Positions 1 to 11,921 of a stretch of 11,921 bases of DNA are shown here, piece by piece; positions within the stretch are counted from its first letter, which is position 1, and each line of letters begins with the position of its first letter. Source of the stretch: a virus (Duplodnaviria; Heunggongvirae; Uroviricota; Caudoviricetes); IMG/VR virus record IMGVR_UViG_2606217106_000005, positions 1-11,921 of that record, one strand, 5' to 3'. The translations under genes were made by a program, and so were the position numbers. Under the pieces are notes generated by a model that worked only from the letters and a program-made list of their open reading frames with translations, was not told the origin of the DNA and searched no databases.

Positions 1-60
1 CCTTCTTATTCATAAGGCGGGACACTTTCAGGATTTTGAATTTATTCAATTTTTTCCTTT

Positions 61-92
61 CTCCAAAATCTCTCCAAAACTTTTCCCCAAAA
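61..92. repeat. Three phased direct repeats CTCCAAAA (61-68), CTCCAAAA (72-79), CCCCAAAA (85-92) just beyond the int stop; candidate integrase arm-type sites
   Basis: Read directly; spacing 11 and 13 bp. In lambda attL the P' arm with three arm-type Int sites lies next to the int 3' end; the assignment here is by analogy only. Confidence 0.3.
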
Positions 93-156
93 CCAGGGCA
101 CGCATTTTACAACACTTTTTTCCTGAAATGGTGACGGATATTCCATATGATGTTTG

Positions 157-1275
157 TTAAATAACCAACTTAACCCATTCCTGACCTCGGGTATCGTTAT
201 AGCGATCGGTGGTAGCCTGGACTTTATGTCCCAGTAATGTTTTTGTATCGACACCCTGTGCGCGGTACAACCGTTCTGACAGGGAGCGTTGTTCATGAAA
301 TGTTGGCGGTGTTTTTCCTGCTGGTGGAATTATTCCAGCCAGATCTCGCGCTTTGGCGAAGTAATCGCTCAGGTTGTCTTTACTCATCGGTTTTGGTTGT
401 TTCTGGTGCCTACTATGGATTAGATATGGACTTAATATTCTGTCTCGGCACCCATCAATAACTTCTTTTAACGTTATCCCAATGGCATCACAGCGTAGTG
501 TAAGCGGTAACGCCAGGCGCATTCCGGTTTTTCCCTGGGTGATATGCAAGTGTTCGTTCCACACATCTGAAAAACGCATGTGGCAAATGTCATCACGGCG
601 CTGACCAGTAACAATCGCAAGAAGCATTGCGTTACGGATAAAGTGTTTTTCAGGCGTTGCGTTGTAAATTTTTTGCCAGTCTTCCAGGGTGAGTCTGGCT
701 CTGGTTACTTTAGGGATCGGTTTACGGGTAGCCTCCGGAGGATTCCATCCAGGAGGAACTTCTCCTGCATGCTGTGCTTCTTTATAAATATCAACCCATA
801 ATCCACGATTTACTCTCGCTGTGCTGACCATGTCTTTATCCAGCCAATCATCCAGTATTAATGCAAAGTCTCTTACTTCCAGTTCTTTCAATGGATGGTT
901 TCCCAGACGGGAAACCAGGTATGCAGCCATTCGGGCTTTTTCTTTGTGAGTTGTAGCTGCAATATCTCCATTTTTCAGTCGCGTGTCCTGTATTTTCAGA
1001 TATCGATCAACCCATGCCTTTAATCTGATACCCCGACGTTTTGTTGCTGACGGACTTTCATCAATTTTGCGCATGAAATATTCAGCTTCTGCTGCAGCTA
1101 TTCGCTGATTGGCTGTGGAAGCGATTTTTTCTGCCTTACCTTTGTCTGTTCCGAGTCCGTGAAATTTTCCAGTCACAGGATTTTTATACTGGTAGTAAAC
1201 TCTGCCAGTTCTGCGATCAAACTTTTCGTAAAGACCGGCTACGTCAGTGCTGTTTTTTCGTGGCCTCGGTGACAT
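157..1275 (-). CDS. int: Phage tyrosine integrase, lambda Int family
   Basis: 372-aa ORF. C-terminal motifs PPTFHEQRSLSERLY and LLGHKVQATTDRYNDTRGQEW align with the lambda Int catalytic HxxR box and the nucleophile Tyr region (DPPTFHELRSLSARLY / LLGHKSDTMASQYRDDRGREW). Start overlaps the 3' end of the xis-like gene, as in lambda. Confidence 0.93.
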   Translation of the reverse strand: MSPRPRKNSTDVAGLYEKFDRRTGRVYYQYKNPVTGKFHGLGTDKGKAEKIASTANQRIAAAEAEYFMRKIDESPSATKRRGIRLKAWVDRYLKIQDTRLKNGDIAATTHKEKARMAAYLVSRLGNHPLKELEVRDFALILDDWLDKDMVSTARVNRGLWVDIYKEAQHAGEVPPGWNPPEATRKPIPKVTRARLTLEDWQKIYNATPEKHFIRNAMLLAIVTGQRRDDICHMRFSDVWNEHLHITQGKTGMRLALPLTLRCDAIGITLKEVIDGCRDRILSPYLIHSRHQKQPKPMSKDNLSDYFAKARDLAGIIPPAGKTPPTFHEQRSLSERLYRAQGVDTKTLLGHKVQATTDRYNDTRGQEWVKLVI

Positions 1276-1522
1276 GAGTTAAAATCTCCTTCAGTGCATC
1301 ATCATCGCCAGTATGAATTTCCGGCGCAATTCCCGTTTCACCAGGCCCAACAAATACTGCTCGGCGATCTATCAGCCAACGCCCACGAATTTTTTGTGGC
1401 CTTGGAACGATGTATCCTAGTTTTCCGTATTTCACCAGGGTAGTGTTTGTTATTGGGAGACTGAACCGTTTTGGTTTCCACTCGTCGAGCGTTATCAGGT
1501 ACTGTTCGCTCATGGCTATCAC
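1244..1522 (-). CDS. xis: Excisionase, lambda Xis-like
   Basis: 92-aa ORF directly upstream of int and overlapping it by 32 bp. Motif YLITLDEW...GRWLI resembles lambda Xis YLTLQEW...REYLF. True start may be the internal Met (MSEQYL, codon at 1511-1513). Confidence 0.75.
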   Translation of the reverse strand: MIAMSEQYLITLDEWKPKRFSLPITNTTLVKYGKLGYIVPRPQKIRGRWLIDRRAVFVGPGETGIAPEIHTGDDDALKEILTHVTEATKKQH

Positions 1523-1574
1523 TCCGGAACGCGCCAGTTGCAGAATATCAACGACAACTGGCGACGGTTGAACA

Positions 1575-4046
1575 TTAAAAATCAGCCTGACTCGGGATCA
1601 GTTTTTGCCAGATAACTGAAACGTATTTTGCCTGGTAACGGGCGTCATCAAGTGCATTATGGCGCTCACCTTCGAATGGAATAGCCGTTCTGGCATCGAA
1701 GTCTATGGCTTTCCCCAGCTCAACGATTGTGCGTACATCGCGATCGTTGTAGTAACGCCACGGGCAGGGGATCCCCTGCCGTTCGTATGAACGGCGCAAA
1801 ATCGTGTTGTCGAAGTTGGCTCCATTTCCCCAGACCTGAACAAAAAATTCACCGGAGTTTTCGTCGATAAATTCCCGCAATTGTAACAGTGCATCATCTA
1901 ACGGGATTTCATCGGTCATAATGGCAGATTGCGCTTCGCGTGATTGCTTAAGCCACCATTTAATGGTGTCCCGATCAATGACTCCGCCAGCAGTTTCCAG
2001 ATCGATAGTCTTACTAAATTCCGGTCCCATATCTCCGGTTTGCGGATCGAAAAATATTGCACCTATTGAGATGATCGGGGCATCAGGATTTTTTCCCATG
2101 GTTTCAAGGTCGATCATTAGATGGTCACACGTCCTGCTGGTGGATGTGATTTCTTGATGACCGTTCACCTTAATTGAGTGATCTGCCGTCTCGCCAGTTT
2201 CATTATCGCTATCGTGATGCTGATTGCCGCCAGTGTTCTCTTTGTGTGGATGTTCAGCGCCTTCCATTTCCTCCGGATCATCTTCCTGAACTTCAACCTG
2301 ATACTCTTCATCGAATGTTTCCTGGTATGTTGCGTCGCCCATCACCGCGCCACAATCAGGGCAGTTGCCGCCGCCGGTCTGACCGCAGGCGGTGCAGATC
2401 TTTTCCGGTTCCTGTTGCACTACTGGTTCAGGTTGTTTCGTTTCTGGCTCGTTTTGTTGCGTACTTGGGCTGTTTTGTTCCGCTTTCTGGTCGTTCTGTT
2501 CCGTTTCTTGCTGGTTCTGGTTCACAGAATCGCGGGTCTGGATCCCATTAACCCATTTCGGATCATTCGGGTCGCTAATCCCTTCAACAAATTCACCACG
2601 TGATACTGCAAGCAGTTCATCGGCGTCAGGCTGGCTGATATTGGCTGCCTGCATAATTTTGTTTACTTCGTCAGCGGTAACTTTTACTGACCCTGGTTGT
2701 GCGGTCGTGTCAGATGCACCAGTATTTTGTTGTGAACCTGAGTATGTACCGTTTTTGCGGGCGAAATATTCTTCTTTCGTGATTTCAGTAGCCCCAGCAG
2801 ACAGCGCCTTATCCAGACCAGAAAGTTTGTTTGCGCGACCGTATTTTTCGCCATCCTTGTCGGTGAAGAGGAAGTAGAACGGCCCCTCACGTTCTACAGA
2901 TGGTTCGACTTCCACTTTGCATTCGGTTTTTTCGTTGTCTGGAATTGCCGTTTCCACTGCATCAGTTTCTGGTACTGGCGACGAGAGAGTATCAGTTGCG
3001 CTCTGATTTGTTCCTTCATCTTCAAACACGCCCTTTGTAGTCAGGTATTCAGTAATGTATTTGTTCAGTGCCACAGGGTCTTTGTGAATGTCGATCGGAC
3101 GTTCACGGACAAGGCCAAAAATAGTCTGGCGGTCGTAGCGAAGGGCATCAGGCTGTTTGCGCATTGATGCCGAGATACGCTTCCAGTCTTCGCGGTCGTT
3201 GTCGATAACTTCATTTTTTGCCCAGCGATGGATGCTGCCGTCAATGTTTCCGGCATCCACATCACCAGGCCAGAGAGCGTAGGCCAGTTCGTCATCCAGT
3301 GTTTTCCATGTCTGCTTGTATTCGCGATGAATGGCAGCAATGACCGGGCTGATTTTTCCTGTTGAATTTTCAGTGTGCTGTTGATTGGTTCTGGCGCGGG
3401 CGAGATCAACAACAGACGTGTATTTTCCGGTTTCCTTGCGTTCACCTTCGCGACGTTTTTTCCAGATGCGCATCTCTGCCTGAATTTCGGGCCATTTGGC
3501 ACCAGGCTTACATTTATGCTTAACGCACCCGATGGCATGCAGCTTAAGCTCCGGATACATGGCGTTAACTTCTGGCATTTTCATCAACGCTTCAACGATA
3601 TGTCCGTCGAATGTTGCCATGTCTTCCTGCAACAATTCCTGTGCGTTAATAACCATATCAACGGTGATGTTTTCACATGTGTCGAACTTAACCATGAGAG
3701 CGTTCTGTACTTCAGGGGCCAGCTTGTCAAAAGTGACGTTCATCAGATCGGATTCAGTCTCAACCGGGACAAAAGAAGCAGAATCCTCATCCCAGCGGTT
3801 TTCCTGCATATATTCAGCATCCCATGAATCGAGGGCAGGGCGGGGTATGCCAGGTTTATCCTCGCAGATAATAAATTTATAAGCGCAGTCCTGAGCAGCC
3901 GGATAATGTTCCAGGAACTGCCAGTGAAATTTTGCTCGAGCACGGCGTTCGTCGCCAGCTTCAATGGCTGTGGCTACAGCCACAGCGCCTTCTTCCCTTG
4001 TTGCCAGTTCGTCAGGAATGGCGGCGCAAATAAAGACTTTACTCAT
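1575..4046 (-). CDS. Large phage exonuclease with C-terminal DEDDh (DnaQ-like) 3'-5' exonuclease domain, Cys4 zinc ribbon and acidic low-complexity linker
   Basis: 823-aa ORF with GAGG SD. C-terminal motifs MIDLETMG (Exo I, D-x-E), GNGANFDNTIL (Exo II), HNALDDARYQ (Exo III, H...D) are visible. CTACGQTGGGNCPDCG is a C-x2-C-x8-C-x2-C ribbon. Sits where lambdoid phages carry exo/recombination genes; I recall similar proteins annotated exodeoxyribonuclease VIII-like, but cannot verify. Confidence 0.8.
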   Translation of the reverse strand: MSKVFICAAIPDELATREEGAVAVATAIEAGDERRARAKFHWQFLEHYPAAQDCAYKFIICEDKPGIPRPALDSWDAEYMQENRWDEDSASFVPVETESDLMNVTFDKLAPEVQNALMVKFDTCENITVDMVINAQELLQEDMATFDGHIVEALMKMPEVNAMYPELKLHAIGCVKHKCKPGAKWPEIQAEMRIWKKRREGERKETGKYTSVVDLARARTNQQHTENSTGKISPVIAAIHREYKQTWKTLDDELAYALWPGDVDAGNIDGSIHRWAKNEVIDNDREDWKRISASMRKQPDALRYDRQTIFGLVRERPIDIHKDPVALNKYITEYLTTKGVFEDEGTNQSATDTLSSPVPETDAVETAIPDNEKTECKVEVEPSVEREGPFYFLFTDKDGEKYGRANKLSGLDKALSAGATEITKEEYFARKNGTYSGSQQNTGASDTTAQPGSVKVTADEVNKIMQAANISQPDADELLAVSRGEFVEGISDPNDPKWVNGIQTRDSVNQNQQETEQNDQKAEQNSPSTQQNEPETKQPEPVVQQEPEKICTACGQTGGGNCPDCGAVMGDATYQETFDEEYQVEVQEDDPEEMEGAEHPHKENTGGNQHHDSDNETGETADHSIKVNGHQEITSTSRTCDHLMIDLETMGKNPDAPIISIGAIFFDPQTGDMGPEFSKTIDLETAGGVIDRDTIKWWLKQSREAQSAIMTDEIPLDDALLQLREFIDENSGEFFVQVWGNGANFDNTILRRSYERQGIPCPWRYYNDRDVRTIVELGKAIDFDARTAIPFEGERHNALDDARYQAKYVSVIWQKLIPSQADF

Positions 4047-4139
4047 TTTGTTTTAACCTCATGACAGATTTAAGGATGAACAAATCCCTGCCATTGCTGG
4101 CATATAAGAATGAAACCGGATATTTATTACGGAACTGTT

Positions 4140-4331
4140 TTAAAGACCTGCCGGGATTTCGATATTATCCTGGTGAATAACTTTATCGACCGGGTAACAG
4201 TTACCGGGAATTTTCTGTTCGGTTGCTGCAGTCATACACTCCTGCATTGTCCTGTGAACACTGACTGCAATATCAACTGGCTCTCCGGAAACAAGAAAAA
4301 CTGTCAGAACAAGTGCAAATGCTGTATTCAT
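4140..4331 (-). CDS. Small hypothetical protein (63 aa) with hydrophobic signal/TM-like N-terminus
   Basis: Start ATG overlaps the stop of the upstream small ORF (ATGA, translational coupling). N-terminus MNTAFALVLTVFLVSG is hydrophobic. Located in the early-left region where lambda has kil/cIII-type small genes. Confidence 0.5.
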   Translation of the reverse strand: MNTAFALVLTVFLVSGEPVDIAVSVHRTMQECMTAATEQKIPGNCYPVDKVIHQDNIEIPAGL

Positions 4332-4516
4332 TGCCAGCATCCTTTTTGTATCGGACGTAAACGGGCCAACATTGAAAGAATGCATATTTTATTTAATAGC
4401 TCCCGTTCGTGTTTTCTCTTGTTAATGGCATCTTCAGTAAATACAGGGTTACTGATAGTGACACCAATTTCAAAACAACCTTCAGACGTATTAACGTTTG
4501 GTAATAACGTTTTCAT
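4328..4516 (-). CDS. Small hypothetical protein (62 aa)
   Basis: Internal Met chosen over the 97-aa ORF-track start because it is preceded by GAGGG 7 nt upstream; stop overlaps the next gene start. Confidence 0.45.
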   Translation of the reverse strand: MKTLLPNVNTSEGCFEIGVTISNPVFTEDAINKRKHERELLNKICILSMLARLRPIQKGCWQ

Positions 4517-5005
4517 TATCGCGCCCTCAACAATGAGTTTTGTGATGCGGTGCCTGGTGCCTCCAGGTGACGTTAACCAGTTAACAATTAACGCCGGATA
4601 CAGAGAATCCAACCATAACACTGTTTTTGGTTTTAACTGTTCCGCGTGCGCTTAGCCGCATTCACCGCATCACAAAATTCACTTTAAAAAGGGCGGCAGA
4701 GCAGTCACGGAGTAAAACTGATACCGCCAAACGTCACCAGAAAATTGATAACAGAGGGCGTTGCAGCGGGGTTGTCACTTAAGCGTATGGTCAACCTGAC
4801 AACCCGGTGTCCTCAACGGGGGAAGGAATACCCCCGCCATACTTACCGCCGCGCCATTTCGCGGATTGCCACAACCAGAAGCGCACGGTCGAAGAAATTT
4901 AACGACAAGACTTATATGCAAAGGGATCTCGCCGTGCGCTTTCGTGTTATGCCCTGACTTTTCAGGGTAAATTAACCTGTGGAAACCTGTTTTTACTGGC
5001 GCTAA

Positions 5006-5245
5006 TCAGTTAGCGTTTCTGGCTAACCAGCGATGCGCGGCAGCTTCGGTTTTAAACGTTTTACTTTTGGTATACGTCATCGCGGTAAACGTGCCGTCCT
5101 GATTGGGAAACACGCCACATACCAGAGATTCGTTGTTGCCAAGCTCGATAGTATCCATGCTGACCTCATTTCCCCTTAACGCTGGGGTAGCGGAACTAAA
5201 AACCTGCTGCGCTGTTATACAAAGTGTTCCCGCCGTCATGTTCAT
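5006..5245 (-). CDS. Hypothetical first gene of the early-left operon (79 aa)
   Basis: First ORF downstream of the predicted leftward promoter; GAGG upstream of the MNM start cluster; no family recognised. Confidence 0.5.
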   Translation of the reverse strand: MNMTAGTLCITAQQVFSSATPALRGNEVSMDTIELGNNESLVCGVFPNQDGTFTAMTYTKSKTFKTEAAAHRWLARNAN

Positions 5246-5339
5246 ACGCCTCGGGCTGGCTACTTAATCCCTGACCACTGCCGGGTAACTCTAGGTATTG
5301 CCCTGTATTGTGTGGGACGGGATGGGTTGGTATGGGAAA

Positions 5340-5408
5340 ACTATAGGAAATGCCTAATTGCTTGTCAATAGGCTATGCCTAATGATTTGGGTGCGACCTA
5401 ATAGGTGA
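5340..5408 (-). promoter_or_regulatory. P_L-like early-left promoter with three operator sites (O_L)
   Basis: Minus-strand TTGACA (plus coords 5363-5368), 17-bp spacer, TATAGT (plus coords 5340-5345). Operator-like sites TAGG-N5-CCTA (5343-5355), TAGGC-tat-GCCTA (5369-5381) and CCTAATAGG (5397-5405), centres about 26 bp apart. Confidence 0.6.
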
Positions 5409-5476
5409 TGGTTTGTGGGAGAGGTAGTAGGAGTTAACTAACGGGAACTAGGAATTTCCCGTCGGACCATATAAGT

Positions 5477-5953
5477 TTAAGTTCCTGTCTTGGTGATGTT
5501 CTGGCTTTTCCGTTTTGATTCTTGATTTTTCAGATAGTTAGCTACCTTCATTTCCATTGCGGCAATGTAGGCGCGAACGTCATGATCAACCCAACTAGGC
5601 TCCGTAGCATTTCCAGATAAGAGGAAAGCCACAATTGCTCTTTTTTCATCAGAGGCGGCTTGATAAAGGCTGTTTATGTCTAAAAGTTCACTTTTTGTAT
5701 CTGAAGTGGATGGGGTTGGTATGGGGTATTCGTTAAGCCCCCAATGCTCTGGACCAACCACATCAGAAAAGAAACGCCATAGTTCTGGAAGTTTGTCTTT
5801 ACTTATCGAACCTTTCTTAATCCAGTCATGGATTGATGGTGGTTGGACTTTGAAATGACGTGCGATTTCCGCCTTTGATTTGACGGCTCCTGATGCAATT
5901 TTTTTGTTGATGGCCTGCTCTATCGCTCGGCCTAAGTCTTTACCACTAAGCAT
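5477..5953 (-). CDS. racR: Prophage repressor, RacR-like HTH protein
   Basis: 158-aa ORF between outward-facing promoters. HTH-like segment SKAEIARHFKVQPPSIHDWIKKGS. Length and N-terminus match my recollection of E. coli Rac prophage RacR; followed divergently by ydaS/ydaT-like genes, as in Rac. Confidence 0.8.
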   Translation of the reverse strand: MLSGKDLGRAIEQAINKKIASGAVKSKAEIARHFKVQPPSIHDWIKKGSISKDKLPELWRFFSDVVGPEHWGLNEYPIPTPSTSDTKSELLDINSLYQAASDEKRAIVAFLLSGNATEPSWVDHDVRAYIAAMEMKVANYLKNQESKRKSQNITKTGT

Positions 5954-5981
5954 TGCTTAATAGTCTCCTATGCGCATCGCG

Positions 5982-6050
5982 TTAGGCAATCCCTACTCTC
6001 GAAGCGTTAGGCATAGCCTATTGACAATCGCATTAGGCTAAGCCTAATAT
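5982..6050 (+). promoter_or_regulatory. P_R-like early-right promoter with three operator sites (O_R), including a perfect 17-bp palindrome
   Basis: TTGACA at 6021-6026, 18-bp spacer, TAATAT at 6045-6050. Perfect palindrome ATTAGGCTAAGCCTAAT at 6032-6048 overlaps spacer and -10; TTAGGC-ata-GCCTA at 6007-6020; TTAGGC half-site at 5982-5987. Confidence 0.65.
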
Positions 6051-6077
6051 TATTGTGTGTTTTTTGGAGTTCATTCG

Positions 6078-6401
6078 ATGAAAAAAGATAACTATTCATT
6101 CAAACGAGCTTGTGCTGTTGTCGGTGGGCAATCAGCAATGGCTAGGCTTTTAGGTGTATCTCCTCCAAGCGTAAATCAATGGATCAAAGGTGTACGTCAG
6201 TTGCCTGCTGAGAGATGTCCTGCGATTGAACGAGCAACAAAAGGTGGTGTCCTGTGTGAAGAACTTCGTCCTGATGTTGATTGGACATACTTACGACGCT
6301 CGTCATGTTATTCGCAGAATATGTCGATGAAGCAACCAAATGACGAAAACGATCATACCCGAAGCATCAAGAGGCAAATGATTCATGAAAATCAAACATG
6401 A
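6078..6401 (+). CDS. ydaS: Cro-like HTH protein, YdaS-like
   Basis: ATG at 6078 preceded by GGAG (6066-6069). Motif GGQSAMARLLGVSPPSVNQWIKGVRQLPAERCPAIERAT is typical of YdaS/Cro-like proteins. First gene after P_R. Confidence 0.8.
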   Translation: MKKDNYSFKRACAVVGGQSAMARLLGVSPPSVNQWIKGVRQLPAERCPAIERATKGGVLCEELRPDVDWTYLRRSSCYSQNMSMKQPNDENDHTRSIKRQMIHENQT

Positions 6402-6810
6402 GCACATCCGCATGGCGATGAATGCCTGGGCATATCCTGATGGTGAGAAAGTTCCAGCAGCTGGAATAACCCAGGCTTATTTTGAGTTGGGTATGACGTT
6501 CCCAGAACTGTATGACGACAGCCATCCGGAAGCCCTGGCTCGCAATACCCAGAAAATTTTCCGCTGGGTAGAGAAAGACACCCCTGATGCAGTTGAAAAA
6601 ATTCAGGCGTTGTTACCAGCGATCGAAAAGGCAATGCCACCTTTGCTGGTGGCCAGAATGCGCAGCCACAGTTCAGCTTATTTTCGGGAGCTGGTGGAGA
6701 CGCGGGAACGACTGGTGAGAGACGCTGATGATTTTGTCGCAGTGGCGATCGCTGGTTTCAACCAGATGAATCGTGGTGGCCCTGCAGGAAATATTGTGGC
6801 TGTGCATTGA
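6385..6810 (+). CDS. ydaT: YdaT-like protein, putative toxic partner of YdaS
   Basis: 141-aa ORF overlapping the ydaS stop by 17 bp; GAGG SD; same position and size as Rac prophage ydaT. Confidence 0.7.
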   Translation: MKIKHEHIRMAMNAWAYPDGEKVPAAGITQAYFELGMTFPELYDDSHPEALARNTQKIFRWVEKDTPDAVEKIQALLPAIEKAMPPLLVARMRSHSSAYFRELVETRERLVRDADDFVAVAIAGFNQMNRGGPAGNIVAVH

Positions 6811-6881
6811 CTCGCAATATTCATACCGGATCACTTCCGGCAATTTGTGAGTAAAAAGATTCGGTATCAAAAGAGGTGAGT

Positions 6882-7952
6882 ATGGCTAACGCCTGGCTCA
6901 GATTATGGCATGACATGCCAAATGACCCTAAGTGGCGAACAATTGCCAGGGTGTCAGGGCAGCCAATTGCAACAGTGATGGCAGTGTATATCCACCTCCT
7001 GGTGAGCGCGTCACGAAATGTCACGCGAGGTCACATTGATGTCACGACAGAAGATTTGGCAAGTGCGCTCGACGTGACAGAAGAGGTAATTGATTCAATT
7101 TTGCAGACGATGCAGGGGCGGGTACTTGATGGTGATTTAATCACTGGATGGGAAAAACGCCAGGTGCTTAAAGAGGACAACGGCAATATTTCGCAAACCG
7201 CAAAATCTCCTGCAGAGCGCAAGAGGGCGCAGCGAGAGAGGGAAAGAAAGCGGGAACAAAATGGCGATTGTCACGGCGCGTCACGAAATGTCACGCACAT
7301 GTCACGACGAGTCACGACAGATAAAGATACAGATAAAGATACAGATCAAGAAGATCAAAACACTATGGTCCATGGCGTAAAAAACGCCACGAACCAGGCA
7401 GGGGATGTTCAGACCGTCAATCTTGGTCAGCCAGCAGGCACGACACCGGAAGCCGATTCAGCGTATGCGCTGAAAGCCGATTCGGGCGCTGTGCAGCAGG
7501 TGATGACCGCAAGGCCGGAGCAATCACACCAACTGCAGCAGCCCGAAGCCGATTCCGCCATTCAGCGGGAAGCCGATCGGGTAGTCCCGGAAAACACCGG
7601 GCAGTCTGTGGGACGAGTGGATTATCCGGATGTGTTCGAACAGGTCTGGCGGGAGTACCCGTTGCGTGCTGGGGCAAACCCGAAGAAATCCGCTTTCAGT
7701 GCCTGGAAGGCCAGATTACGCGAGGGGGTGCCACCAGAGGCCATGCTGGATGGCGTGAGGCGTTACGCAAGATACTTGGCGGCTACCGGGAAAACGGGAA
7801 CGGAATTTGTTCAGCGAGCGACGACGTTTTTTGGACCGGACCGGAATTTTGAAAACCCCTGGTTGCTCCCGGTAAGCGGCACGAACAACCAGCGTTGTGT
7901 TAATCATATTTCTGAACCGGACACCGAAATTCCGCCGGGATTCAGAGGGTAA
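6882..7952 (+). CDS. Phage replication initiation protein (replisome organizer, O-like) containing the putative origin
   Basis: ATG at 6882 with GAGG SD. N-terminus AWLRLWHDMPNDPKWRTIARVSGQPIATVMAVYIHLL resembles phage replisome-organizer N-domains. C-terminal FEQVWREYPLRAGANPKKSAFSAWKAR...WLLP resembles the conserved C-domain of phage replication proteins. Iteron clusters lie inside the gene. Confidence 0.75.
   Translation: MANAWLRLWHDMPNDPKWRTIARVSGQPIATVMAVYIHLLVSASRNVTRGHIDVTTEDLASALDVTEEVIDSILQTMQGRVLDGDLITGWEKRQVLKEDNGNISQTAKSPAERKRAQRERERKREQNGDCHGASRNVTHMSRRVTTDKDTDKDTDQEDQNTMVHGVKNATNQAGDVQTVNLGQPAGTTPEADSAYALKADSGAVQQVMTARPEQSHQLQQPEADSAIQREADRVVPENTGQSVGRVDYPDVFEQVWREYPLRAGANPKKSAFSAWKARLREGVPPEAMLDGVRRYARYLAATGKTGTEFVQRATTFFGPDRNFENPWLLPVSGTNNQRCVNHISEPDTEIPPGFRG
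7006..7050 (+). repeat. Iteron cluster 1: four TCAC(G) repeats at one-helical-turn spacing
   Basis: TCACG at 7011, 7021, 7042 and TCACA at 7031; inverted copy CGTGAC at 7073-7078; a 21-bp block GCGCGTCACGAAATGTCACGC is repeated exactly at 7276-7296. Confidence 0.6.
7271..7342 (+). repeat. Iteron cluster 2 (five TCACG repeats) followed by a 12-bp tandem duplication AGATAAAGATAC x2
   Basis: TCACG at 7271, 7281, 7291, 7302, 7312 (spacing 10-11 bp); tandem 12-mers at 7319-7330 and 7331-7342, then degenerate AGATCAAG copies; A/T-rich flank consistent with a DNA-unwinding element. Confidence 0.6.
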
Positions 7953-7989
7953 CAGATTTCAGGTCATGGGGTAATTTTCAGGAGGGCTT

Positions 7990-8412
7990 GTGGCAAAAGT
8001 TTTTACACAAGAAGAGCGGGAAAAAATTAAAGGGCAGGTTGTTGAACTCGTACGCCAGAGTGGGCGCGAGACGTTACGACAACTGGAAACTAAAACTGGG
8101 GCAACAAGATATCTGATGAGCGTTCTGGCCAGAGAGCTGGTTGCCAGTGGCGATGTATACAATTCTGGCTACGGGTTATTCCCGTCTGAACAGGCTCGTA
8201 AAGACTGGCAAAATGCCCGCAAAAAACTCTCAAGGGCAAAGCTGAAGAAACCATCTGCGGTTGATCCGGACCTTATCTGGTCATTACCAGATGGCGAAAT
8301 ACGCCGCTACGACAGGCGTCTGAACATAATCTGTCTCGAGTGCCGGAAGAGCGAAGTTATGCAGCGCGTACTGGCGTTTTATCAGGGGAATTTTGAGGAG
8401 GTGGTGCGGTGA
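7990..8412 (+). CDS. Hypothetical protein (140 aa), first gene of a translationally coupled trio
   Basis: GTG start with GGAGGG SD (7981-7986); stop overlaps the next start (GTGA). Confidence 0.55.
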   Translation: MAKVFTQEEREKIKGQVVELVRQSGRETLRQLETKTGATRYLMSVLARELVASGDVYNSGYGLFPSEQARKDWQNARKKLSRAKLKKPSAVDPDLIWSLPDGEIRRYDRRLNIICLECRKSEVMQRVLAFYQGNFEEVVR

Positions 8413-8663
8413 GTGAATCAAAATGCCAGGTTAATGGCAACAAGATAGAACCATGTGCAGCACTGGCAAAGTCCCTTGAGCATGATGCTGAATACACGAT
8501 GCGAAAAGGTCTGCTGATATACAAAATCTGGAATGAGAGTTTAACTCGCGGTCCTGATTTTGTGATGTTGCGTTCCGGTGAATTTTCTAAATTACCAGTT
8601 CGGGTTTCATTTTGTCCGTTCTGTGGTGAAAGTCTGAAAACGTGGGAGAACAGAAATGAATGA
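8409..8663 (+). CDS. Hypothetical small Cys4 protein (84 aa), possible zinc ribbon
   Basis: GTG start after GAGGAGG; cysteines in CQVNGNKIEPC and CPFCGES suggest a metal-binding ribbon; overlaps both neighbours. Confidence 0.5.
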   Translation: MSESKCQVNGNKIEPCAALAKSLEHDAEYTMRKGLLIYKIWNESLTRGPDFVMLRSGEFSKLPVRVSFCPFCGESLKTWENRNE

Positions 8664-8967
8664 AATTAAAGAAATACCAGTAGTACGTGATGAATATGGC
8701 TGCTGGACGCATCCTGAATATGAAAAATTCTGTGACGGTCGGGAATATATTTCAACGGAAGAGTTTAACGCCTGGATGGAGGAAAATAATCTTCAATACG
8801 TCCTCTGCTTCAGAGATGAAGGATGTGCTGACCTTGATGCGTGTGATGCTGATATTTCTGCATGGGAACCGGAACGACCAGAGGGCAATGGATGGTTTAT
8901 TGGTTCAATACATGACACCGAAGATGGCCCGGTTTGTGTATGGCTGAGAAATAAGGCCGAAGCATAA
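8656..8967 (+). CDS. Hypothetical acidic Cys-rich protein (103 aa)
   Basis: ATG overlapping the upstream stop (ATGAATGA); GGGAGA SD; six cysteines; no family recognised. Confidence 0.55.
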   Translation: MNEIKEIPVVRDEYGCWTHPEYEKFCDGREYISTEEFNAWMEENNLQYVLCFRDEGCADLDACDADISAWEPERPEGNGWFIGSIHDTEDGPVCVWLRNKAEA

Positions 8968-9272
8968 AGGCTATAAACCGACTAACAACTAAATACTGAA
9001 GATTTAAATCAGAAACGATTTTTATTAAATCCTTAACCGGAGGGATTCTGCACCCTCAGAACATCAGGAGGCCGTCTGAAAGGGCGGAACAGATAATGCT
9101 TACGTTGAAACATTTTATCGACATACCAACATGGTTAGCCGTCATTGCTTTTGTTAAAATACACATCCACTTTTCTGTGCAATGTTTAACCACTGGTCAT
9201 ATCAAATGGCATTCATGCGAACCATGATATAGAATCATGGCTTGAGAGAGTCGATGAAAGCGCAACTATGGT

Positions 9273-9851
9273 ATGAGAGACATTGATGTAAGAAAGGCTG
9301 TGCATGCCAAGATTCTGAGAGATCATCATAAAGATCCTGACACCCTAATCATTGATGAGTTTACGATGAATCTAGGGGCTAGCAGAGCTGATATAGCAGT
9401 GATCAATGGGCTTATACATGGTTATGAGTTGAAGAGCAAGAGTGATAACTTGCTCAGATTACCAGCGCAGGTGCAACATTACTCATCAGTGATGGATAAA
9501 GTAACTTTGGTTGTCTCTGATTGCCATCTTTATGATGCTTTAAGCATAGTTCCATCATGGTGGGGGATAAAGCAAGTTACGCAAGGTGCACGGCAAGGTA
9601 TCCATTTAAAAACAATTCGAACTAGCAAGTTGAATCCACAAGTGGACAAACTTTCCTTAACAATGCTTCTTTGGAAAGATGAATTGCTTTCCCTATTAAG
9701 TGATGTAGGGGAGCTACAGAATTTGAAAAATAAACCTAAACGCGTCTTATGGTCAAAACTCGCCAATAGTATGGATGTTGGCGAGCTTCGTGAAGCTGTT
9801 CGAGTTAAACTTAAAGCCCGTAAAGAGTGGCGAGTTGCTCAACAACCTTAG
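9273..9851 (+). CDS. PD-(D/E)XK-type nuclease-fold protein (192 aa), sce7726-like by recollection
   Basis: Motif arrangement IIDEF (E29) ... RADIAVING (D40) ... GYELKSK (E52-x-K54) matches the restriction-endonuclease-like core. Putative extended -10 (TGaTATAGA, 9225-9233) upstream. Confidence 0.7.
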   Translation: MRDIDVRKAVHAKILRDHHKDPDTLIIDEFTMNLGASRADIAVINGLIHGYELKSKSDNLLRLPAQVQHYSSVMDKVTLVVSDCHLYDALSIVPSWWGIKQVTQGARQGIHLKTIRTSKLNPQVDKLSLTMLLWKDELLSLLSDVGELQNLKNKPKRVLWSKLANSMDVGELREAVRVKLKARKEWRVAQQP

Positions 9852-10908
9852 TTATGTGATGGTTTTGCCCAATCCTACGCCATACCTCTGGGCTACCAAA
9901 TTTATAGTTACCAGAGGGATTGGCTTTGTAGGCTTGATACTCGTTTGCATAATATTCTATGTCTCTATCTCCCGCACAGAATGTAGGCCCTGAATATTCT
10001 CGATGAGCAAGAATATCCTCACTATGTTTACCATATTGTTCATAACCAAAGCGATTAGCTACTCTTCCTCGAAATACCCAAAAGTCATTATCTCCAGAGT
10101 ATCTGACGCTGGCAGATACGCTAGGGAATCGCGTCGAAAGCCTATTAAAGTCGGGGTGCTGTACTCCATAATCACTATAAATCACATTTCTGGCAAGTTC
10201 TTTTCTATTCATTAAACTCTGCCATAAAATCCACTCGATTCGAGGTTGAGAATATAGACCAACAGAAATATCACTGAGATCTGTAGGAAATGAACCCCCA
10301 GAAAGAATCACTTTTCTGTATTCATTGAGGTGCGCCAGATTGTTTATCAATCCCATTGCCAAAGTATATAGTTCGCCGGAATTAATTTTATCCTCGGTTA
10401 ACTCATCTCTTAAGTCAATAATTATATCAATATTTGATAAAGGAATTCCCAGATGATTAATGTAATGCGTTATTAATTGTGGGTTAACCAGATCTAACGT
10501 GGTTAATCTCAAGCATATTTCATTCTGCATTAATTCATCAATCGCTCTTTTATAGTTAGATGGGCGAGTTGGTGAACTGACAGGAATAACTCTTATCCCC
10601 ATATCTCTAACTTGATTAACCGCATTTATTATAGGGTAATGATCTTCAGGAGAAATAAAATGCTCTTCAATTAATAATCCATCAATATAAACACCTTGCA
10701 TATCTGAGCAAGATTTTGAGACTTTCTTTCCGAACTCTATAAGAGTCTCGTTATAACTCTTTAAGGCAATACCTGAATCAGGGTCAATTGGCACTGGTTC
10801 AATTTCGAGTAATGGCAAAATTTTTGATTTCTTTTCAATGGATAGCTGCGATAAAGCTGATAACTCAGAACGTTTCGCTTTCAGAATAGGAATATATGAA
10901 ATTGTCAT
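9811..10908 (-). CDS. Beta-protein / sce7725-like family protein (365 aa), function unknown
   Basis: Long ORF with AAGG SD 8 nt upstream of ATG. N-terminal MTISYIPILKAKRSELSAL matches my memory of the conserved start of this family. No Walker or other catalytic motifs recognised. 3' end overlaps the convergent 192-aa gene by 41 bp. Confidence 0.7.
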   Translation of the reverse strand: MTISYIPILKAKRSELSALSQLSIEKKSKILPLLEIEPVPIDPDSGIALKSYNETLIEFGKKVSKSCSDMQGVYIDGLLIEEHFISPEDHYPIINAVNQVRDMGIRVIPVSSPTRPSNYKRAIDELMQNEICLRLTTLDLVNPQLITHYINHLGIPLSNIDIIIDLRDELTEDKINSGELYTLAMGLINNLAHLNEYRKVILSGGSFPTDLSDISVGLYSQPRIEWILWQSLMNRKELARNVIYSDYGVQHPDFNRLSTRFPSVSASVRYSGDNDFWVFRGRVANRFGYEQYGKHSEDILAHREYSGPTFCAGDRDIEYYANEYQAYKANPSGNYKFGSPEVWRRIGQNHHITKVVEQLATLYGL

Positions 10909-11339
10909 GTTAATACCTTATACAGAATCAATTAACAATTAATGGTTCTTCGGACATTGAAATTTATATCGCAAAAATTGGCAAACTCTCCTCGACTACT
11001 CACTTGTGGGTATCCTGGCGTAAAAGGAATGACTTGGCAATACCCGGTGTGATCATAAGTCATTGAAAATGATCATTTTTATCAGTCTTTCTTCCATGAT
11101 GAATGCTAATGCCATTTGATTTGTTGAGGTGAAAACTGTTAAAAATCAAAACGATGTAATTGAAATGAACGTTCGGTAGCATTCACGCTTTAAATGTTTC
11201 TTTTGTGCTGATTGGATGAATTTGGGTCACTTCTGATGAGAGATGTTGCAGGAAAAGAAGTTGGCATTGATCTATTGGATAGTTAGAATTACTGCGGGTG
11301 CTTGAGGCTATCTGCCTCAGGCATGAACACCAAAAGGCA

Positions 11340-11420
11340 GATAGAGAAAAGCCCCAGTTAACATTACGCGTCCGGCAAGACGCTTAACATTAATCTGAGG
11401 CCAATTTCATGCTTTGCACA
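11340..11420 (-). ncRNA. Candidate Sok-like antisense RNA of the hok locus (approximate)
   Basis: Inferred only from the canonical hok/sok organisation (antisense RNA opposite the hok mRNA leader/mok start); no clear promoter or terminator could be pinned down by eye. Confidence 0.25.
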
Positions 11421-11465
11421 TGTAGGTTAGCCTCTTACGTGCCGAAAGGCAAGGAGAAGCAGGCT

Positions 11466-11621
11466 ATGAAGCAGCAAAAGGCGATGTTAATCGCCCTGAT
11501 CGTCATCTGTTTAACCGTCATAGTGACGGCACTGGTAACGAGGAAAGACCTCTGCGAGGTACGAATCCGAACCGGCCAGACGGAGGTCGCTGTCTTCACA
11601 GCTTACGAACCTGAGGAGTAA
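11466..11621 (+). CDS. hokD: Hok-family type I toxin (HokD/RelF-like), 51 aa
   Basis: Translation MKQQKAMLIALIVICLTVIVTALVTRKDLCEVRIRTGQTEVAVFTAYEPEE has the Hok signature (single TM helix, LTRK..LCE.R) and matches my recollection of E. coli RelF/HokD. GGAG SD; in-frame upstream ATG at 11409 gives a 70-aa mok-like extension. A 9-bp inverted repeat (11308-11316 / 11336-11344) lies in the leader. Confidence 0.85.
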   Translation: MKQQKAMLIALIVICLTVIVTALVTRKDLCEVRIRTGQTEVAVFTAYEPEE

Positions 11622-11921
11622 GAGACCAGGCGGGGGAGAATCCCATAAGCGCTAACTTAAGGGTTGAACCATCTGAAGAATGCGACGCCTCGGTGCCTCG
11701 TTAAGACGATGCCTCGCGTTCTTCAATTGCGTTTTGTAGGCTGTCAGGGATACTGTCCCACGAATGGCCACCTGTAAGCTCCAGATGACCATTTTTGTTA
11801 TTCTCCACAACGAGTTAGTTCTTCTTTTCGGATCCGGCACTTCTGGGGGGGGAATCCAGCGATGGCTGGATTATGTCGTCAATTAAAAATGCGGCGAGTA
11901 GATTAGCAAATATCCACGCTT

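Follow-up and report, generated by a model that had tools for sequence, protein, structure and literature searches.

Several described systems lie close to the gene considered here. RecE of the Rac prophage of Escherichia coli K-12 carries its nuclease domain in residues 564-866, and linear-linear recombineering owes its efficiency to the full-length protein (PMC11611040). T4 DexA and E. coli EcD are DNA 3'-5' exonucleases (PMC12153337). DnaQ-like nucleases have already been reported in lambdoid early-left operons and are legitimate members of the recombination (Rec) module in epsilon34, and a class of lambdoid phages with no Rec module and abundant Chi has been described (PMC12315714). The gene compared with these systems occupies 1575-4046 of an 11,921-nucleotide stretch of viral DNA (IMG/VR record IMGVR_UViG_2606217106_000005, positions 1 to 11,921; hereafter the window), which is the left arm of a lambdoid prophage integrated beside potC. 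An earlier sequence-only reading of the window had described a composite open reading frame (ORF) of 823 codons at these coordinates, and the ORF list and translation agree with it exactly. It is firmly established that the product is a recE-family scaffold in which a DEDDh 3'-5' exonuclease replaces the PD-(D/E)XK nuclease, and that this gene is selected, widespread and without an annealase partner. Its parts are as follows (pLDDT, predicted local distance difference test score of AlphaFold2, AF2).

1575..4046, minus strand: whole gene, 823-residue RecE-scaffold/DEDDh exonuclease, ATG start (ORF list and translation).
3756..4046, minus strand: Domain 1, residues 1-97, small alpha/beta domain of the N-terminal type A (confident in the AF2 model).
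3387..3746, minus strand: Domain 2, residues 101-220, helical, N-terminal type A (AF2 pLDDT > 90).
3012..3314, minus strand: Domain 3, residues 245-345, helical core, present in nearly the whole family including Rac RecE (about 278-375) (PRK09709, BLASTP).
2742..2894, minus strand: Domain 4, residues 385-435, small beta-beta-alpha-beta-alpha domain (AF2 pLDDT 94-97).
2172..2663, minus strand: RecE-identical segment, residues 462-625, two helices (weak DUF4072 match) and then an acidic, Q-rich disordered linker.
2352..2396, minus strand: Cys4 knuckle C551-x2-C554-x7-C562-x2-C565 in the linker, kept in RecE (sequence and RecE alignment; the AF2 model does not cover the knuckle).
2136..2143, plus strand: Chi site GCTGGTGG, antisense within the gene at residues 635-638, where the RecE-like linker gives way to the DEDDh domain.
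1608..2123, minus strand: DEDDh 3'-5' exonuclease domain, residues 642-813 (PF16473, catalytic residues, fold, DexA match).

Pfam PF16473 (Rv2179c-like 3'-5' exoribonuclease) scores 226.6 bits on the C-terminal domain, where the cut-off is 27 (E 2.2e-67; the match spans positions 2-177 of the 177-position profile), and the general RNase_T model scores slightly under its threshold there. The Exo I (D-x-E), Exo II (D) and Exo III (H-x4-D) motifs are all present, the catalytic residues being D646 and E648 (in MIDLET), D746 (ANFDN), and H796 and D801 (HNALDD); these five columns do not vary when the domain is aligned to T4 DexA, to an EcD-like E. coli ORF and to four phage homologues that stand alone. 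An RNase H-like alpha/beta fold is supported by AF2, with pLDDT 70-93 across most of residues 640-820 and a low-confidence loop at residues 687-712. T4 DexA (8KEL/8KEN) provides the sole solved structures matched by sequence (E 1.5e-6) and also stands first in a Foldseek comparison with the PDB (E 4.6e-6, target-normalised TM-score 0.55-0.59), where all 53 matches at E<=0.001 are DEDDh enzymes; RNase T, Orn, ERI1 and Cap18 come after it. The profile, the five intact catalytic residues and the DEDDh-only Foldseek matches uphold the C-terminal DEDDh exonuclease that the sequence-only reading had proposed, and a domain search of that half, which might have failed to return a DEDDh profile, did return one. 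The predicted polarity is 3'-5', as for the DEDDh class, and not that of the 5'-3' double-stranded DNA exonucleases of two-component recombinases.

The name of the Pfam family bears on the substrate. An RNA-directed 3'-5' exoribonuclease which, like Mycobacterium tuberculosis Rv2179c, would trim or degrade host or phage RNAs in lytic growth is in keeping with this best Pfam model, with the NCBI name, often '3'-5' exoribonuclease', and with structural neighbors that include RNase T, oligoribonuclease and ERI1. It is nonetheless improbable: the nearest characterized relative by sequence and fold, T4 DexA, is a DNase, as is EcD, the scaffold derives from a DNA exonuclease, and close stand-alone homologues have ssb and abc2 as their neighbors within a DNA recombination module. 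The kinship with DexA, together with the retention of D718 at the position of DexA D90, could also point to scavenging of the T4 kind, in which fragments of host DNA would be turned into nucleotides for phage replication. There is very little chance of this, with no endonuclease partner present and with the same DNA chemistry in phage and host, which leaves no self/non-self discrimination; degradation of the host chromosome is also not known from lambdoid temperate phages.

What, then, is the remainder of the protein? Pfam and structure comparison found no catalytic motif in the N-terminal two thirds, as the sequence-only reading had it, and no nuclease or annealase fold, but this region is not anonymous. 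NCBIfam PRK09709/NF007259 (RecE, exodeoxyribonuclease VIII) aligns with residues 246-625 over model positions 271-602 of 877 (E 9e-85), a homology which that reading had missed; its score of 285.4 bits lies below the full-length RecE equivalog cut-off of 1269. BLASTP against K-12 RecE aligns residues 262-625 with RecE 278-591 (E 6e-65, 40% identity overall), with Domain 4 falling in a gap of the alignment and with identity of about 80% over residues 462-625 (RecE 455-591), Cys4 knuckle included. The knuckle would probably bind zinc. At the DNA level the gene is 78.6% identical to recE over 443 bp, and homology ends at residue 623 here and at residue 589 of RecE. Because this is right before the RecE PD-(D/E)XK domain, the gene is best described as a recE-type scaffold with an exchanged nuclease. 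The RecE-type PD-(D/E)XK domain (PF12684; RecE 564/606-866) itself was not found in the protein by Pfam, by BLASTP alignment past RecE residue 591 or by phmmer with RecE 596-866, and a Pfam search of all 823 residues gave no match to the N-terminal Exonuc_VIII domain PF06630.

AlphaFold modeling of the N-terminal part from a 62-sequence alignment gave a pLDDT of 86.7 for residues 1-440, with four confident domains, and no Rad52/RecT/Erf-like or RecA-like fold was found in this region. Downstream of these domains two helices are modeled at residues 458-482, followed by a linker with pLDDT < 50 over residues 500-636 and a net charge of -24 over residues 500-640. Domain 2 of the type A N-terminus recurs in PHROG 2489, PHROG 26058 and family representatives with other C-termini.

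These last representatives belong to a modular family. A plain homologue search with residues 1-460 returned near-identical E. coli entries only (P0001-P0120), and an exhaustive search of 1.84 billion proteins with the same residues gave only 185 representatives at the 50% identity level. Domain seeds, with RecE 596-866 for PD-(D/E)XK, were mapped by phmmer onto the long representatives. The building blocks are two N-termini (type A or the RecE type, PF06630), a common middle domain (Domain 3, detected in most long representatives) and three C-termini, and each N-terminal type is found with each nuclease type, DEDDh and PD-(D/E)XK.

C-terminus DEDDh: P0121, P0124, P0140, P0231, P0235, P0238, P0256, P0258.
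C-terminus RecE-type PD-(D/E)XK: P0131, P0141, P0177, P0186, P0209, P0232.
C-terminus without recognizable nuclease: P0126, P0129, P0132, P0134, P0147.

Sister architectures, P0244 for example, and an 813-residue variant (locus L004) do have PF06630, and phage vB_EcoS-813R8 carries an 813-residue version, with a RecE-type N-terminus and DEDDh, at the same potC site. The five nuclease-less proteins are 700-790 residues long, and their C-terminal 250-300 residues have no Pfam or PDB match (for P0126 and P0134, no PDB match by sequence); this part could be a third C-terminal module. Nuclease-less genes were also seen at loci L127, L128 and L129, followed at L127 and L129 by Sipho_Gp157 (PF05565) genes.

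In K-12 recE is directly followed by recT. Is there a comparable partner here? Two samples of loci were examined, 80 from IMG/VR with genes 94-97% identical to that of the window and 36 with more distant genes combining a RecE-like N-terminus and DEDDh; flanks of 6-8 kb were searched for RecT, most loci being close relatives, with three positive controls. No RecT, Bet, lambda Exo or Gam was detected by phmmer in the 80 and 36 loci or among the window ORFs. Because the phmmer seeds, E. coli RecT and lambda Bet, missed the divergent RecTs of control loci L125 and L126 (found by Pfam), a RecT hidden Markov model (HMM) was built from three RecTs; against 4825 stop-to-stop ORFs of at least 80 residues it matched two control RecTs only, and none at any DEDDh locus. 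Pfam recognized no annealase family in 32 clusters of upstream same-strand ORFs of at least 150 residues from the 80 close relatives, clusters which include repressors, methyltransferases, AbiH and similar; for the Erf, Sak and Sak4 families, Pfam was the only method used and these clusters were the only material covered. Within the window, ORFs of 79-97 residues and the DicF RNA, and nothing more, lie between the exonuclease gene and the repressor, and because xis is directly downstream there is no space for a recT-like gene on the 3' side. The complete 45.9-kb lambdoid genome of phage mEp460_ev081 (L159) carries a homologue with 94.6% identity in a stretch that reads dicB, ydfD, exo, xis, int; RusA is present but no annealase is annotated anywhere. 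The absence of a RecT/Bet partner stated in the sequence-only reading therefore holds in the window, in the 80 close and 36 distant relatives that make up the survey of homologous prophages, and in the annotation of the whole mEp460 genome.

An annealase gene nested in the large ORF was considered and rejected, as ten internal or overlapping ORFs had no Pfam match. One of the nested frames, a 157-codon ORF at 3065-3538 (minus strand, other frame), is found in 75 of the 80 relatives without a Pfam or RecT-HMM match; most simply it is a by-product of host-gene conservation.

At L125 and L126, by contrast with the DEDDh loci, genes joining the type A N-terminus to PD-(D/E)XK are directly followed by RecT-family genes (PF03837, E 1e-39 and 9e-30), that of L125 overlapping the stop codon of the PD-(D/E)XK gene. 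In the sampled loci, then, the PD-(D/E)XK version pairs with recT and the DEDDh version goes without, an apparent exclusivity.

A recE gene that had lost its nuclease and partner might simply be drifting in defective prophages. Many copies do reside in such prophages, K-12 ydfE is truncated by IS2, and nuclease-less relatives exist, but decay of this kind is largely refuted. The full-length frame was recovered 79 times, from the window, from mEp460 and from 77 of the 80 IMG/VR loci, and the catalytic residues are intact. The ratio of nonsynonymous to synonymous substitution rates (dN/dS), a mean over pairs of 73 distinct full-length alleles that are mosaic and whose pairs are non-independent, is 0.235 overall and 0.07-0.20 in folded domains vs 0.45-0.82 in linkers:

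Domain 1, 0.07.
Domain 2, 0.18.
Domain 3, 0.16.
Domain 4, 0.07.
DEDDh domain, 0.18.
Disordered stretch, residues 346-384, 0.82.
Disordered linker, residues 500-640, 0.45.

The folded domains are under purifying selection. Besides the complete mEp460 genome, DEDDh-coding DNA is found in 4069 of 5426 complete E. coli genomes (75%), at 8111 places and in up to 7 per genome, mostly at >=95% DNA identity; recE nuclease-coding DNA, in 1736 of those genomes, is rarer. The family is already annotated: the PHROG 2082 'exonuclease' profile covers the protein over its full length, NCBI calls it 'exonuclease' or '3'-5' exonuclease', and in precomputed Pfam the N-terminal region of every close homologue carries PF27430 and PF27432. 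A literature search on the gene family, on ydfE and on Rv2179c with phage found no experimental functional study. The sequence-only reading had set the gene against the usual lambdoid recombination modules. It is no oddity: it belongs to a known, very common and catalogued prophage gene family, found in roughly 75% of the complete E. coli genomes and commoner than canonical recE.

The setting of the gene in the window is as follows.

157-1275, minus strand: int (integrase), at the prophage end adjoining potC (ORF list, homologous-prophage annotation).
1244-1522, minus strand: xis (excisionase), directly downstream of the exonuclease gene (ORF list, homologous-prophage annotation).
4140-4621, minus strand: small kil- and dicB-like genes.
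4691-4742, minus strand: DicF small RNA, upstream of the exonuclease gene within its operon and flanked by ydfC and the dicB-like gene (Rfam RF00039, 76.7 bits vs gathering score 48).
5006-5245, minus strand: ydfC.
5340..5368, minus strand: candidate early-left promoter upstream of ydfC, near-consensus sigma-70 (TTGACA, 17-nucleotide spacer, TATAGT; 11 of 12 consensus positions).
5477-5953, minus strand: repressor.
From 6057, plus strand: rightward genes (cro-like, ydaT, replication).

The DicF match identifies an early-left operon of the Qin type, and the gene order matches that of K-12 Qin (dicF, dicB, ydfD, ydfE, int). The candidate promoter would drive ydfC, DicF, dicB/kil, the exonuclease gene, xis and int; a promoter and terminator scan of the window showed no strong terminator-like site ahead of the exonuclease gene, which would be the final early-left gene ahead of xis-int and be expressed upon induction. 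In Rac the corresponding slot, after kil and before xis-int, holds recE-recT. The placement in a recombination-gene position by the sequence-only reading is thus confirmed, and descent from recE explains why the gene sits there: its middle region and linker are RecE sequence. The K-12 Qin pseudogene ydfE (L158 7079-7999), truncated by IS2E, is 96% identical to residues 1-256. Because of this match and the same gene order, the 823-codon gene is the intact form of ydfE, and because of the IS2E truncation K-12 holds a mere remnant of a gene intact in most E. coli.

The company of kil, dicB and DicF, host-directed elements in what would be an early-expressed operon, may be read as a sign of anti-defence. 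The enzyme would then destroy an immune nucleic acid (retron multicopy single-stranded DNA or a signaling oligonucleotide) or a 3'-tailed DNA intermediate of a defence system; the DEDDh class does include members that degrade dinucleotides or oligonucleotides (Orn, and Cap18 among the fold matches). We regard this as highly improbable, as the protein has no homology to any known anti-defence protein and the large RecE scaffold would be hard to account for.

The window holds four Chi sites, at 320, 2136, 6645 and 6690, all on the plus strand, vs 0.27 expected; none is on the minus strand, and 0 of 200 shuffles of the window reached four. In 77 of the 80 close relatives, the site within the gene recurs at the identical codon position. 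The mEp460 genome has 7 Chi sites on the top strand vs 2 on the bottom strand, and the lambda segment examined has none. The counts for the window and mEp460 fit the class of lambdoid phages with abundant Chi and no Rec module (PMC12315714). A single antisense Chi also lies in the 3' third of several distant DEDDh-type genes, and K-12 recE has none. That Chi promoted exchange of the nuclease module is a speculation.

How might a RecE scaffold operate with a nuclease of the opposite polarity? The domain, of the DexA/EcD type, would be an exonuclease that needs Mg2+ and takes nucleotides off 3' ends. Because the gene is the last early-left gene before xis-int, the protein would be made on induction or infection and not in the quiescent lysogen. 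It would operate without a phage annealase: the scaffold would deliver the 3'-5' exonuclease to phage DNA ends or to recombination or replication intermediates, where it would trim 3' tails or flaps, and the pathway would draw on RecBCD and RecA of the host and RusA of the phage in place of RecT. Scaffold-delivered 3'-end trimming with RecBCD and RecA is proposed because there is no annealase and no RecBCD inhibitor of the Gam or Abc type, and because the Chi sites are co-oriented. We tentatively favor such RecT-independent processing of DNA 3' ends in lytic growth, targeted by the scaffold and assisted by host recombination functions, as an explanation that falls somewhat short of even odds; the use of pL, the preference for a DNA over an RNA substrate and the biological role are all inferred.

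The closest relatives of the nuclease domain, stand-alone genes of temperate phages with about 180-190 codons and 51-60% identity, bear on this proposal in two ways. Close homologues sit inside the recombination modules of Salmonella phage g341c, in the canonical order erf-ssb-DEDDh-abc2, and of Vibrio phage H188, among a Sak4-like AAA_24 gene, DUF669 and a Cas4-type exonuclease, and this supports 3'-end processing; that a DnaQ-like nuclease belongs to the Rec module was also concluded for phage epsilon34 (PMC12315714). Several points weigh against the proposal. Other close homologues, in phages F1055 and 1720a-02, sit outside Rec modules, in the accessory ea region beside DUF551/EaA genes and int, and sporadic DnaQ-type genes beside int were excluded from Rec-module genes (PMC12315714). 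3'-5' single-stranded DNA exonucleases usually inhibit rather than promote homologous recombination (PMC12315714), and such an enzyme would be expected to destroy the Chi-terminated 3' tail made by RecBCD. The exoribonuclease name of the Pfam family makes an RNA substrate possible, and the RecT search spans 6-8 kb of flank at loci that are mostly close relatives.

A broader version of this proposal treats the RecE N-terminal region as an autonomous, nuclease-agnostic targeting module with interchangeable C-termini (PD-(D/E)XK that needs RecT, DEDDh without it, or none), the DEDDh form serving a RecT-independent 3'-end pathway with RecBCD, Chi and RecA in Chi-rich lambdoid phages without a Rec module. 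It is on balance doubtful. The suggestion that the scaffold has a function of its own arises because purifying selection keeps it with nucleases of opposite polarity or with none.

Defence against other phages is a further possibility, raised by EcD. EcD ('HREX') of E. coli is a 3'-5' exonuclease reported to cut only DNA with 5-hydroxymethylcytosine (5hmC) and to protect against T4; D90 of DexA is needed for the tetramer that attacks unmodified DNA, and a D90-to-A change is said to make EcD dimeric and modification-specific (PMC12153337). Use of the published EcD forward primer recovered a 189-codon ORF with Ala at position 78, as the paper states (PMC12153337), whose six copies are 37-39% identical to residues 644-816 over 183 residues (E 4e-37 to 5e-35). 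This ORF, seen at L150 5679-6269 (minus strand) and also at L132, L137, L147, L148 and L153, is part of a prophage early operon, where its neighbors encode a DNA methyltransferase, a repressor and an integrase. Because it is prophage-borne, the 'bacterial' defence nuclease EcD (PMC12153337) appears to be a phage gene. By analogy the 823-residue protein could selectively degrade 5hmC-type DNA of superinfecting T-even phages and shield the lysogen or the induced cell, and the accessory location of some close stand-alone homologues beside int would suit such a role. However, alignment places Y766 at DexA W152, A780 at D169 (the alignment near D169 being uncertain) and D718 at D90, so the D90-to-A change of EcD is absent, and because of these residues at the key positions reported for 5hmC recognition and tetramer loss, an EcD-like specificity is unsupported. 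Nor does any PADLOC model match the exonuclease; the gene lies in the early-left operon downstream of the repressor-side promoter, without a promoter-like site of its own, and the RecE scaffold is without counterpart in EcD. Inter-phage defence of this type is unlikely, and 3'-end processing remains the favored explanation.

Elsewhere in the window, a convergent overlapping pair of genes downstream of the replication genes, at 9273-9851 (plus strand) and 9811-10908 (minus strand), has a GC content of 0.34-0.41. One member is of the sce7726 family (NCBIfam E 1.7e-56; PADLOC 'cll' E 2.4e-28) and the other is a 'beta family protein' (PADLOC PD-Lambda-2_C, E 1.8e-41); the pair is a candidate anti-phage defence cassette. 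At the right edge, a sok antitoxin RNA at 11296-11471 (plus strand; Rfam RF01794, 119.8 bits) overlaps a hokD-like toxin ORF at 11409-11621 (plus strand), which by sequence is a type I toxin-antitoxin locus.

To an already annotated family this analysis adds the RecE ancestry, the modular exchange of the nuclease, the apparent exclusivity with RecT and the identity with K-12 ydfE. The comparative anatomy bears on an old gap, the role of the roughly 600 non-catalytic residues of RecE, and the family offers natural domain-swap variants for probing the function of the scaffold. It also places EcD, T4 DexA, the DnaQ-like nucleases of Rec modules and a common prophage gene in one clade.

Within this DexA/Rv2179c-like clade, T4 DexA (exonuclease A) is the best solved match by sequence and fold, with the five DEDDh residues aligned, but it is only about 25% identical, has extra loops, stands alone at 227 residues and comes from a virulent phage with modified DNA, unlike the 823-residue protein. 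EcD, for which the identified ORF is either the gene itself or that of a near-identical protein, is likewise prophage-carried, but it stands alone without a scaffold, has A78 where the protein of the window keeps D718 and has Trp where Tyr is found here. Closer still are the nucleases of epsilon34/g341c (gene 29), Stx phage 1720a-02 and Salmonella phage F1055, 56-60% identical and also encoded in the early-left operon; these DnaQ-like nucleases lack the RecE scaffold, and in g341c the annealase Erf and SSB adjoin.

On the side of the scaffold, the nuclease-less group corresponds to the 'RecE-2' proteins (PMC12315714), which have the type A N-terminus and middle domain in common with the 823-residue protein (P0126, P0129, P0132, P0134) and differ in their C-terminal 250-300 residues, without recognizable nuclease, and in the Sipho_Gp157 genes among their neighbors. 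Rac RecE shares the early-left position, the homologous middle domain, the linker and the Cys4 knuckle, and with them the overall plan, in which a long N-terminal part without catalytic function leads through a disordered acidic linker to a nuclease at the C-terminus. The protein of the window differs from it in residues 1-245, which are of the other N-terminal type without PF06630, and in the extra small domain at residues 385-435. Above all, the nuclease of RecE is a 5'-3' PD-(D/E)XK enzyme and its gene is followed by recT, whereas here the nuclease is of the DEDDh 3'-5' class and the gene is followed by xis.

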